59,501 nucleotides of DNA from positions 1-59,501 of the IMG/VR virus record IMGVR_UViG_3300025889_000128. The stretch is one strand, 5' to 3'. The notes beneath the pieces were generated by a model, which ran no database searches, was not told the DNA's origin, and was given only the letters and a program-made list of their open reading frames with translations. This DNA comes from a virus (taxonomy: Duplodnaviria; Caudoviricetes). Numbering within the stretch: position 1 is the stretch's first letter; each line of letters starts with the position of its first letter. Below are positions 17,426 through 25,073 of the stretch, in pieces. The position numbers and the translations under genes were made by a program.

Positions 17426-17743
17426 TTATGTGGATTCATCAACAAGCTTTATTAATCTTTTGAGATTTTCTGGTTTAAACTTCTTTAACATCTCAACTGA
17501 TTGATGATGTTTCTTACATAATAATGCAAACCTATTTGGATCTCTTTTTATTACAGGTAATACATATTCATTATAAGCATAAGAATCTTTAAAATCTGAA
17601 TATATTTTATCGCTATTTAAATACCTTTTGTGATGAAATACAAACCATTTACCAAATTTTTTACCACATACATAGCATTTACCATCAAACTGTGGCATAA
17701 ATGCTACCTCTCTCTTCATCTTATCCATTATTTCTTTTTTCAC
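17426..17743 (-). CDS. HNH-like endonuclease
   Basis: CYVCG...FHH...LLCKKHH. Confidence 0.55.
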   Translation of the reverse strand: MKKEIMDKMKREVAFMPQFDGKCYVCGKKFGKWFVFHHKRYLNSDKIYSDFKDSYAYNEYVLPVIKRDPNRFALLCKKHHQSVEMLKKFKPENLKRLIKLVDEST

Positions 17744-18479: not shown

Positions 18480-18722
18480 CTATTTAAACTTGTGCCTTAA
18501 TTTTGAAATAATTCCAAGAGTTATGGCAGTAATTGGTATTAATTCTATTAAATCTATTCCATATAGAAAGAAATCTAACACTGGATTCTTGTGAGTAATT
18601 ATGCCTAGTTGTAAATAGGCATCGCCAGCCCATACAAAATGAGGTATCTGTAAATATAATATTATAGCAGTAACAAGCATTGATTCTGTTATATGTCTTT
18701 CATACCAATCAAAGAAACCCAT
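18480..18722 (-). CDS. Small membrane protein
   Basis: Two hydrophobic segments. Confidence 0.7.
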   Translation of the reverse strand: MGFFDWYERHITESMLVTAIILYLQIPHFVWAGDAYLQLGIITHKNPVLDFFLYGIDLIELIPITAITLGIISKLRHKFK

Positions 18723-23324: not shown

Positions 23325-23449
23325 TATAATCCTAGCTCCTTTAATTGTTTATCAATGATTGGCTTCTCATCATCAGGTAATGAATCCCAATACTCCATAA
23401 GTATATCATAGGCTTGTTTGTATCGAGCTTCAGATTTTTCTTTACTCAT
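23324..23449 (-). CDS. 41-aa hypothetical protein (not in ORF track)
   Basis: MSKEKSEARYKQAYDILMEYWDSLPDDEK...; TAATG overlaps on both sides. Confidence 0.7.
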   Translation of the reverse strand: MSKEKSEARYKQAYDILMEYWDSLPDDEKPIIDKQLKELGL

Positions 23450-23667
23450 TAGACATACACCTCTAATACTGTGGTAGCACCACATGCTTTGGATTCCCCT
23501 ACGGAATTATTGAATGACATCTTTATGTCACAATCAACAAACTCAAACTTATCAGTAGAGTATGTTATACCATGTAACAAGTCTTGAACCATTAATGGCT
23601 TACCTGTTTTCTTCAATGTCTTCTTATACCATAGACGGTATCTTAATCTTTTTTCCATTACCATCAA
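23449..23667 (-). CDS. Hypothetical protein
   Basis: 72-aa ORF coupled to neighbours. Confidence 0.65.
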   Translation of the reverse strand: MMVMEKRLRYRLWYKKTLKKTGKPLMVQDLLHGITYSTDKFEFVDCDIKMSFNNSVGESKACGATTVLEVYV

Positions 23668-23816
23668 TACATTTCACTCCATCTATAATCTTCATACTCT
23701 TTATCACGAATTGTTTCGTGCTCGTATGAATAATCATTTGCGTAATCATCTAACCAATCTTTAAAAAATCTGGTTATGAAATGATTCCAAATCAAACCCA
23801 TGACTAAACGTTTCAT
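23664..23816 (-). CDS. 50-aa hypothetical protein (not in ORF track)
   Basis: ATG lies 21 nt downstream of promoter copy 23838-23862. Confidence 0.7.
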   Translation of the reverse strand: MKRLVMGLIWNHFITRFFKDWLDDYANDYSYEHETIRDKEYEDYRWSEMY

Positions 23817-23860
23817 AATTGTAATACGTTGAACTTGTATATAAGTCGATCTTTGATTAA

Positions 23861-23906
23861 TTCAGATTAATTCCGTAAGTTTCAGATTTAATCTGTAAGT
23901 TTCAGA
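23861..23906. repeat. 2.3 tandem copies of a 20-bp unit
   Basis: ttcagattaattccgtaagt / ttcagatttaatctgtaagt / ttcaga. Confidence 0.8.
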
Positions 23907-23916
23907 AAAGAAAATA

Positions 23917-24099
23917 AATACAGTAGGTAGGCGTGCCTGTTCTTCAATGAGCCACAAGCCCATTCTGAAAACGCCTCGTTCGTAAGTTATGTATCTCTGT
24001 CTTTTTTTTTTTGAACTTGAGCATGTAGTAATCGTACATGAATTACCTCAAGTCCTCTCTCGTCAATTCGAGCACATTGAGATCCTACTGTATTACAGT
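23917..24099 (-). ncRNA. Putative structured non-coding RNA (~180 nt)
   Basis: TATA tttaaata at 24128-24121 with no ATG at the usual spacing; 11-bp closing stem; four internal helices, two with G-U pairs that form only on the minus strand; U-rich tract at the 3' end. Confidence 0.65.
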
Positions 24100-24255
24100 A
24101 ATACTATTACTCTCTTATAGTATTTAAAGGTATATTTGATTTTTTTATTTTATTTTTTTTATTTTTTTTACTCGCGTACAAGTTACATTATGTCGTGTAC
24201 GACTCCATAACCGAACTGTTTATATACCCTTACATTCACAGGGCTCACAAAAAAA

Positions 24256-24732
24256 TTACTTGAACCAATCGGGTGCTGACCGATTAGTCCATTTGGCAAA
24301 GCCATGTTTCTCATGGATATAGTATTGTCTATAAGCCTCATGTGGATCATCACACTTATACTTATCAGGCATAGCCATAACAAACTTTGTCATTGGTGTA
24401 AGTGGAATGTTAGGATAAGGTAATGATGCAATAATATCCCATGACTTATGATTGACTTGTCTATTGTATCTAAACTTATACTCTTCATTCAATGCACTAG
24501 CATGTCTAACTAACCATAAATAATTAGACATGGACATGCCTGTCCATAGTGTGCATGGGTGATTAGCATGTGTCATTTTATAGGGTATGTCATACTTGAC
24601 ATTTCTATTAGGATATTTGTGATGGACGGTACAAATAATTTGTGCTGACTCTAGTATCATTTTGACAACATGCTTGTCACACATTTGTAAAGCCGAACCT
24701 TTTGGGCTTGGTGATAATGCGAATATGTTCAT
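24256..24732 (-). CDS. Pyrimidine-dimer DNA glycosylase/endonuclease V-related protein
   Basis: MNIF.L...DKHVVKMILESAQ...TH.NHPC..W...NY.WL...EY..RY...HKS...AMPD...AYR.YY. Start set at MNIF. Confidence 0.75.
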   Translation of the reverse strand: MNIFALSPSPKGSALQMCDKHVVKMILESAQIICTVHHKYPNRNVKYDIPYKMTHANHPCTLWTGMSMSNYLWLVRHASALNEEYKFRYNRQVNHKSWDIIASLPYPNIPLTPMTKFVMAMPDKYKCDDPHEAYRQYYIHEKHGFAKWTNRSAPDWFK

Positions 24733-24752
24733 AACAATAAAACACACTCGCA

Positions 24753-25073
24753 CTATTTAAGACTTGCTTTGATTGATTTGAGTGTCTCTCTCAATTCAAT
24801 GTAGTCGGCTATCCATGATAGAGAACGTCCATTCTCTACCATGAGCCATATCATACGAGACAGTTTTCTGTTATTAATCCCACAAGTTAATAACAACTTT
24901 CTCATACTAAGTCTAGTAAAACTAGACGGTAAAGAATGGACAGCGTAAGGGCTTGTATATCCTACTACTTCAGCAAGTGCTAGATAAGGACATTGATAAG
25001 AATATACTTTCTTATCTGCATCTCTCAATGCTTGTATAATATATTCTGTATCACTCATCTTGCAATACCTCAA
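24753..25073 (-). CDS. Hypothetical protein
   Basis: In the leftward operon; start may be MSDTEY. Confidence 0.6.
   Translation of the reverse strand: MRYCKMSDTEYIIQALRDADKKVYSYQCPYLALAEVVGYTSPYAVHSLPSSFTRLSMRKLLLTCGINNRKLSRMIWLMVENGRSLSWIADYIELRETLKSIKASLK

Follow-up and report, generated by a model that had tools for sequence, protein, structure and literature searches.

What does the gene-free stretch at positions 23906-24099 of the virus record IMGVR_UViG_3300025889_000128 encode? The window analysed here is the whole of that record (59,501 bases, 95% complete by CheckV and about 33% G+C), and the element in question sits on the minus strand, in a 440-nt gap between a denV-like gene and a 50-codon open reading frame (ORF). 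A first-pass annotation of this DNA had proposed it as a candidate novel structured viral non-coding RNA, a proposal that is borne out by its fold, by the covariation of its helices, by internal ORFs that are not conserved and by the lack of an Rfam match. We judge it very probable that the stretch is a true gene whose product, a folded non-coding RNA, has about 185 bases, and the RNA family is new, matching no catalogued family. We further consider it likely that 23906-24099 (minus strand) is a stand-alone structured RNA gene belonging to a clade of tailed archaeal viruses that encode both MCM and RadA.

Folded as the minus strand, positions 23917-24099 reach -52.1 kcal/mol, against -35.6 +/- 3.8 kcal/mol for 200 dinucleotide shuffles, none of which does as well (z -4.36); this is the comparison by which the first-pass annotation had suggested checking its candidate. 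The plus strand of the same positions folds less well, with 6 of the 200 shuffles as good (z -2.18). Three further copies of the element were found in related viruses. The first (L008) lies in a 55-kb virus contig, 89% complete (record G005), and was located by a stem-letter pattern of the 3' arm; such 3'-arm patterns returned this locus only, and a pattern scan for the 5' hairpin returned nothing. An alignment of two MCM proteins, used as the query, yielded seven related contigs, among them L019 (record G006), where the copy was found by both blastn and our model R1 (57.8 bits, E 4.9e-11), and G004 (58 kb, 93% complete), where R1 found the copy that we call L020 (61.2 bits, E 2.2e-12). The 3'-arm model R2 finds exactly one copy each in the window, G004, G005 and G006, and the element is single-copy in each of the three genomes that are 89-95% complete. 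Across the four copies (window, L008, L019 and L020, an order that we keep throughout), the sense-strand z-scores are -4.36, -2.47, -3.21 and -5.35 and those of the antisense strand -2.18, -0.73, -4.52 and -2.96, so that the sense strand folds better in three of the four.

The window and L008 are syntenic at this locus, with denV-like proteins that are 50% identical, small downstream ORFs that are 61% identical and alignable DNA at about 67-87%. Across 23917-24001, 81 of 84 aligned bases are identical between the two (with one gap), compared with 60 of 116 in the upstream flank and 22 of 47 in the downstream flank. Other queries led to no additional copies: the denV-like gene retrieved only loci that are 38-50% identical (L002-L007), all without the RNA, the AAA ATPase and a 402-aa protein retrieved no relatives, five fragments of other viruses having just the denV-like gene in common gave no R2 match, L015 and L005 gave no R1 or R2 match in the parts covered, and among GenBank phages neither the window region nor the L020 copy found a match.

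A three-way junction is common to the four copies, made up of a closing stem (P1), a second stem (P2) that carries a variable 5' arm with a small hairpin (P3), and a near-invariant 3' arm (P5-P5b-P6); the minimum-free-energy folds of the single sequences each reproduce P1, P2, P3, P5 and P6. In the window P1 pairs 24084-24094 with 23917-23927, and, as the first-pass annotation had it, AAUACAGUAGG (24094-24084) is perfectly complementary to CCUACUGUAUU (23927-23917), an 11-bp inverted repeat (I11). P1 measures 10-11 bp except in L019, where it has 7 bp (plus up to 4 past a 1-nt bulge). P2, which is 5-7 bp long across the four copies, stacks directly on P1 and joins AUCUC (24079-24083) to GAGAU (23993-23997). 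The P3 hairpin (24059-24072) consists in the window of a 4-bp stem, CUCG/CGAG (24072-24069 with 24062-24059), and a 6-nt loop, AAUUGA; among the copies the stem reads CUCG/CGAG, AGAG/CUCU or GGUG/CACC and the loop AAUUGA, AAAAGA, AAAUGA or GAAUGA, and the hairpin is recovered in independent folds of L019 and L020. P2 and P3, both supported by covariation, replace the UCAAU/AUUGA helix of the earlier proposal, which is unused in the fold and lost in L008.

The part of the 5' arm inside P2 is 81, 61, 98 and 128 nt long in the four copies. It holds, in the window's lineage only, the hairpin P4 (24013-24055), for which L008 has a shorter and different hairpin and L019 and L020 have others; the helix GGACUUGAG/CUCAAGUUC enclosing CAUGUA/UACAUG, which had been described at the outset, is accordingly present in the window's minimum-free-energy fold as a long hairpin but is particular to that lineage. 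Two other features that had caught the eye vary as well. The A11 run described as a linker is there in the window (24002-24012), but it is not a conserved feature: L008 has A10, L019 and L020 have no such run, and in one strain it has four more bases (insertion at 24001, X17); the palindrome at 24086-24100 reads as described in the window but is lost in L008. Between P2 and P5 lies an unpaired joiner, ACAUAACUUACGAACG (23977-23992), which is identical in the window and L008; its lengths in the four copies are 16, 16, 14 and 22 nt, and only its end letters, ACA... and ...AACG, are kept. The conserved 3' arm (23929-23976) is formed by P5, a short P5b, a 2-nt bulge, a 7-bp P6, a loop of 4-5 nt and an internal loop of 7 nt. 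The AGGCGU/ACGCCU helix enclosing an AAUGGGC/GCUCAUU hairpin that had been predicted here appears in the minimum-free-energy fold. P5, AGGCGU/ACGCCU, is invariant in the four copies, and P6 retains one G.U pair in all four.

Covariation, another check that the first-pass annotation had named for this fold, is present among the four copies. In a helix table built from explicit coordinates, P1 is paired in 42 of 44 cells with changes on both sides at 8 of its 11 positions, P2 in 20 of 20 cells (2 of 5 positions), P3 in 16 of 16 (3 of 4) and P6 in 28 of 28 (3 of 7), while P5, paired in 24 of 24 cells, has both-side changes at 0 of 6 positions and is invariant. As a control the 3' partners were slid by 1-3 nt, and the number of paired cells, 36-38 of 36-39 before, fell to 12-19. 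In the Infernal alignment A6, 96.2% of cells are paired and nine pairs show a change on both sides, values reached by 0 of 500 shuffles, and slid structures on the same alignment give 35-45% of cells paired with 0-2 such pairs. From a plain MAFFT alignment of the 3' arm that had not been fitted to the structure, RNAalifold recovered P5 and P6, and of the 17 pairs in its fold of the arm 5 show compensatory change. Standard pairs fill 147 of 149 cells on the sense strand as compared with 138 of 149 on the antisense strand, the difference being made up by nine G.U pairs.

Which transcription signals can be expected depends on the virus. The window codes for an MCM, a Rad51/RadA recombinase, a T4-type large terminase (Terminase_6N, Terminase_6C), a portal-like protein and a tail tube protein, and the 19 records of the phage collection with a match to its MCM all belong to archaeal viruses. 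The window is therefore a tailed archaeal virus, to which archaeal transcription signals apply. The cellular cluster nearest to its RadA is mostly Nitrososphaerota, which suggests, as a lead and not a finding, that the host is probably an ammonia-oxidising archaeon of that phylum.

A search of the window for four TATA octamers gave 76 sites, 28 of which are followed within 40 nt by the first ATG of an ORF of at least 40 aa; in 19 of these 28 cases the ATG lies 20-23 nt past the octamer, from which it follows that the genes are leaderless and that the box predicts the start. The TATA box of the RNA gene, which the first-pass annotation had placed correctly, reads TTTAAATA (24121-24128, minus strand), and no ORF of at least 40 aa starts within 304 nt downstream of it. 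The spacing rule puts the predicted +1 at 24099, 22 nt past the box and five bases ahead of P1, in agreement with the start near 24099 that had been proposed. In L008, where the box is again TTTAAATA, the start predicted by the rule lies no more than one base from the first P1 pair, and in L019, where the box is TTTATATT, it falls on the first base of the 7-bp P1 core; the box is conserved in three of the four copies. Its context, TTTAAATA-CTA, is the promoter type of the tail-tube and other genes, unlike that of the early cassettes. On the other side of the element, directly 3' of P1 as had been noted, lies the U-rich tract UAUUUUCUUUUCU (23900-23916), presumably an archaeal oligo-U terminator, with U3 and U4 runs in the window, U5 in L008 and U6 in L020. 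The RNA would then be about 185-194 nt long (23906-24099, minus strand), with its 5' end at about 24099 and its 3' end within the U-rich tract; model R1 matches 23906-24100. Wherever the two occur in one locus or record (window, L019 and G004), the RNA is oriented as the mcm gene is.

The DNA around these signals has a repetitive grammar of its own. In L020 the RNA is followed by four occurrences of the TATA-like box ACCUUUAUAUACC or its reverse complement (1751-1875), with a period of about 28-35 nt, and after these comes GUUGUACACGCG. Upstream of the RNA in the window (24171-24235, minus strand) and in L008 (10690-10745, minus strand) there is one box, then UUGUAC(G/A)CGAG and then a long A-rich tract, and in L013 (2988-3050) the same grammar leads straight into the small ORF with no RNA between them. 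Judged from these letters, the box grammar is conserved across the window, L008, L013 and L020 viruses.

The element has no coding potential. Its 31-codon ORF, whose conservation in place of the pairing had been named at the outset as evidence against an RNA, corresponds to 10 unrelated codons in L008, and a second internal ORF (33 aa) is frameshifted there by a 1-nt deletion in a loop, in DNA that is otherwise the same. Its place among the conserved genes also varies, with three arrangements in the four copies. The window and L008 have it between the denV-like gene and the small ORF; in L019 it is found between two other conserved small genes and is followed by a convergent gene; and in G004 it is upstream of a homologue of the 402-aa protein, with the four repeated TATA-like boxes behind it. 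Given these differing neighbours, the element behaves as a self-contained unit.

No catalogued RNA accounts for it; the first-pass annotation had seen no tRNA, C/D, H/ACA or ribozyme pattern in it. Rfam 15 gave no match at gathering thresholds across the whole window and ARAGORN found no tRNA or tmRNA gene there; with E up to 10, the window gave only chance rows far below gathering scores, namely snoZ182 (outside the element) and TCL6_3 (covering the 3' half only). At the same limit the L020 copy gave no row and the L019 copy only snoR31, which is antisense and overlaps its 3' end; the 3' arm alone gave one chance row, a long non-coding RNA, and the manA motif (RF01745) gave no row in three copies.

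Several points weigh against the reading of a stand-alone RNA gene or limit how far it can be pressed. In L019 the antisense strand folds at least as well as the sense strand (z -4.52 vs -3.21) and the U-tract is weak (CUUUCUUC), while in L020 the TATA box is only the weak TTTAGAGA. Models R1 and R2 find no copy in G001-G003, fragments that are 36-46% complete, and L013, which has window-type neighbours and the small ORF, lacks the element at the syntenic site. P5b is poorly supported, with 14 of 16 cells paired and both-side changes at 0 of 4 positions in the tabulated register; RNAalifold places it in a register shifted by two, where two of three pairs show compensatory change. The distinct sequences number only four, and two are close to each other; for L019 and L020 the positions of P1-P3 come from inspection by eye and from folds of the single sequences, and A6 is an alignment fitted to the model, with P2 of L020 misplaced and P3 omitted in two rows; the covariation statistics are therefore of limited power and carry some bias. 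Low variation among close strains extends to the small ORFs as well and so is not specific to the RNA, and protein binding, the function that we favour below, is a proposal drawn solely from the pattern of conservation.

The strain data themselves come from four metagenome runs; among the runs listed as containing the stretch, none is of RNA. Contigs covering the region show variants and no covariation, and of 40 listed substitution rows 4 fall in 23522-24212, 24 in 23353-23521 and 12 in 24213-24727. One X2 contig joins 23862 to 24212, skipping the RNA unit, and the shorter side of this joint is only 22 letters long; it could represent a strain that lacks the RNA unit or, more probably, cross-mapping of the repeated promoter grammar.

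If the RNA is real it might act by base pairing, as an antisense regulator that uses the 16-nt joiner or its loops on viral or host mRNA. Stand-alone small RNAs with their own promoter and terminator are often antisense regulators, and the window and L008 do not differ in the unpaired segment of 16 nt. The joiner of L019 and L020, however, differs in both sequence and length (14 and 22 nt), and the most conserved parts of the RNA are paired. An exact 18-mer of the joiner found no other true match in metagenome or genome collections, where it returned the L008 contig again (as L009) and chance matches alike in the seed only (L010-L012); the joiner, being variable, is a poor probe. Because this unpaired segment is not conserved, antisense action is probably not the mode, and we regard it as unlikely. 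Somewhat less likely again is that the 3' arm mimics a host CRISPR repeat, which would make the RNA an anti-CRISPR of the Racr kind embedded in a larger fold and soaking up Cas6 or other Cas proteins. The arm has about 37 nt between the P5 strands, GUUU at its start in all four copies, a central 7-bp hairpin and short tails, a layout that we take to resemble that of structured type I repeats from archaea, and the window's arm has AUUGAAG at its end. Yet the AUUGAAG tail is lost in L019 and L020, none of the CRISPR-DR families of Rfam gives a hit to the arm with E up to 10, and phage and plasmid collections show no such repeat array, only single chance matches. CRISPR-Cas of type I-B is reported in some Thaumarchaeota (PMC6563490).

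Readings that dispense with a free RNA fare worse. A structure at the level of DNA or single-stranded DNA, such as a replication origin, a priming site or a packaging signal, would fit inverted repeats that stand beside A-rich tracts and repeated TATA-like boxes, and a copy (L019) that folds well on both strands; but the G.U pair kept in all four copies, and the nine G.U pairs that become A.C mismatches on the other strand, speak for RNA, as do the better sense-strand folds of three copies, a TATA box at the genome's standard spacing and a U-run after the last stem, and the element is placed differently in related genomes. We consider such a structure very improbable, and a cis-acting leader, attenuator or 3' UTR (untranslated region) element of a neighbouring gene comes out marginally lower still. 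The element does lie about 100 nt upstream of the small conserved ORF in the window and L008, but a promoter element of its own precedes that ORF, the TATA box standing 20 nt from the ATG, the gene downstream is convergent in L019, the L020 copy is followed by the array of repeated boxes, the upstream genes vary among the copies and L013 has the small ORF without the element. The 11-bp terminal inverted repeats, together with a presence and position that vary among related viruses, would also suit a small non-autonomous mobile element with P1 as its ends; there is, however, one copy per genome and no target-site duplication on reading. Against this, and equally against a chance fold or a small protein gene, internal helices covary, the G.U pair is kept and the ORFs are not conserved, and since four homologues have one architecture a chance fold is excluded; we give this last group of explanations hardly any weight.

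We therefore return to a stand-alone structured RNA and ask how it might work. The host RNA polymerase would start about 22 nt downstream of TTTAAATA, at about 24099, and transcription would end in the U-rich tract just past the closing stem. The RNA is predicted to fold into the three-way junction described above, with P1 closing the ends, P2 on P1 carrying the variable 5' arm with P3, and P5-P5b-P6 forming the 3' arm, and most likely it would then act in trans by binding a protein. A host or viral protein would recognise the invariant 3' arm and the loop of P3, and the RNA could be a scaffold, or a decoy that sequesters that protein during infection. Protein binding is suggested by the contrast between stems that covary and neighbouring features that are invariant or nearly so (P5, the G.U pair, the internal loop of 7 nt and the loop of P3), by a 5' arm that is free to grow or shrink and by the lack of any long unpaired segment that is conserved.

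Among known systems, the RNA most plausibly works, by analogy, like VA RNA I of adenovirus and the EBERs of Epstein-Barr virus, abundant structured small viral RNAs that act by binding host proteins. In common with these, it is virus-encoded and non-coding, has its own promoter, falls in the same size range of about 160-190 nt and combines a terminal stem with an oligo-U stop and branched arms. VA RNA I and the EBERs are transcripts of eukaryotic RNA polymerase III with known partners, whereas the RNA described here is a predicted transcript in an archaeal host and has no sequence or Rfam relation to them. A second comparison is with Racrs, described as promoter-driven viral RNAs, the one examined in detail being expressed from a 161-bp stretch that starts at its predicted transcription start (PMC10651486). 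The two share a promoter of their own, a viral origin, an overall size that is similar and a lack of coding function, and the window also has the promoter close upstream with no repeats of the arm beside it (the TATA box is 22 nt before the predicted start, and the element is a single copy). The defining feature of a Racr is its likeness to a host CRISPR repeat, while our RNA was compared by layout only (a 3'-arm hairpin with short tails), and its arm is locked into a covarying fold of larger size, something that is not known from Racrs.

Two further systems were considered and set aside. The terminal stem that brings together the 5' and 3' ends is found in Y RNA/YrlA-type RNAs, though it is a generic feature, and a 561-aa VWA protein, which adjoins a MoxR-like AAA ATPase, is encoded nearby; that protein gave no TROVE match in its first 370 residues with E up to 10 and no PDB relative, and Y RNA models in Rfam did not match. 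With no TROVE match in these residues, a Ro60/Y RNA pairing is without sequence support. The phi29 pRNA type likewise gave no Rfam match, and a virus with a large terminase of the T4 type is not known to need a packaging RNA, so that one like phi29's is not expected here. The pRNA of phi29 and the RNA described here are nevertheless both small RNAs of tailed viruses in which a helix closes the 5' and 3' ends of a three-way junction. As a separate observation, the P6 loop (23953-23957) and the 7-nt internal loop (23935-23941) could form four antiparallel pairs in all four copies despite their differing letters. Such complementarity would allow contacts like those of phi29 pRNA multimers, a weak lead given a chance of 23-50% per sequence, with all four sequences reaching it in 153 of 20000 shuffles; pairing within one molecule looks sterically unlikely, and a contact between molecules is at most conceivable.

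The immediate neighbours of the RNA gene are minus-strand genes as well. Upstream lies the denV-like gene (24256-24753; Pfam Pyr_excise, phrog_624), which has a terminator-like hairpin of its own at its end, and downstream lies the 50-codon ORF (23664-23816), with a promoter element at 23837-23862 and a TATA box 20 nt ahead of its ATG. Two direct repeats of 20 nt (family D1) occupy 23861-23900, right after the U-tract; they overlap copies of the AAUUAAUC promoter element of this next gene and are missing in L008. Elsewhere in the window, two small minus-strand proteins at 17426-17728 and 18480-18722 (100 and 80 aa) are 96% and 94% identical to their L008 counterparts, while most of their neighbours are 45-73% identical (MCM 73%); both adjoin mcm and are very constrained.

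To our knowledge, almost everything known of the viruses of ammonia-oxidising archaea comes from metagenomes, and no non-coding genes of these viruses have been described. The main text of a 2025 preprint surveying viruses of ammonia oxidisers makes no mention of non-coding RNA, and none of the papers that our searches for non-coding RNAs of archaeal viruses turned up deals with an RNA of this kind from this group of viruses. A 2023 screen of IMG/VR intergenic regions lists 8495 unnamed novel candidates of 29-151 nt, among which part of this motif may already figure (PMC10690425). For the annotation of this virus clade, it is useful that the TATA box predicts transcript starts to within a few bases. 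The 3' arm might act as a decoy for a host defence or RNA-processing protein, and the boldest form of that idea, a CRISPR-repeat mimic held in a larger covarying scaffold, is a long shot; if it were true, no archaeal virus would have had an RNA-based counter-defence described before this one, and ammonia-oxidising archaea, which are ecologically important hosts, would by implication be under active CRISPR pressure. As a compact RNA gene with clear boundaries and an invariant arm, the element offers a handle on the interplay between these viruses and the RNA-binding or defence proteins of their hosts.

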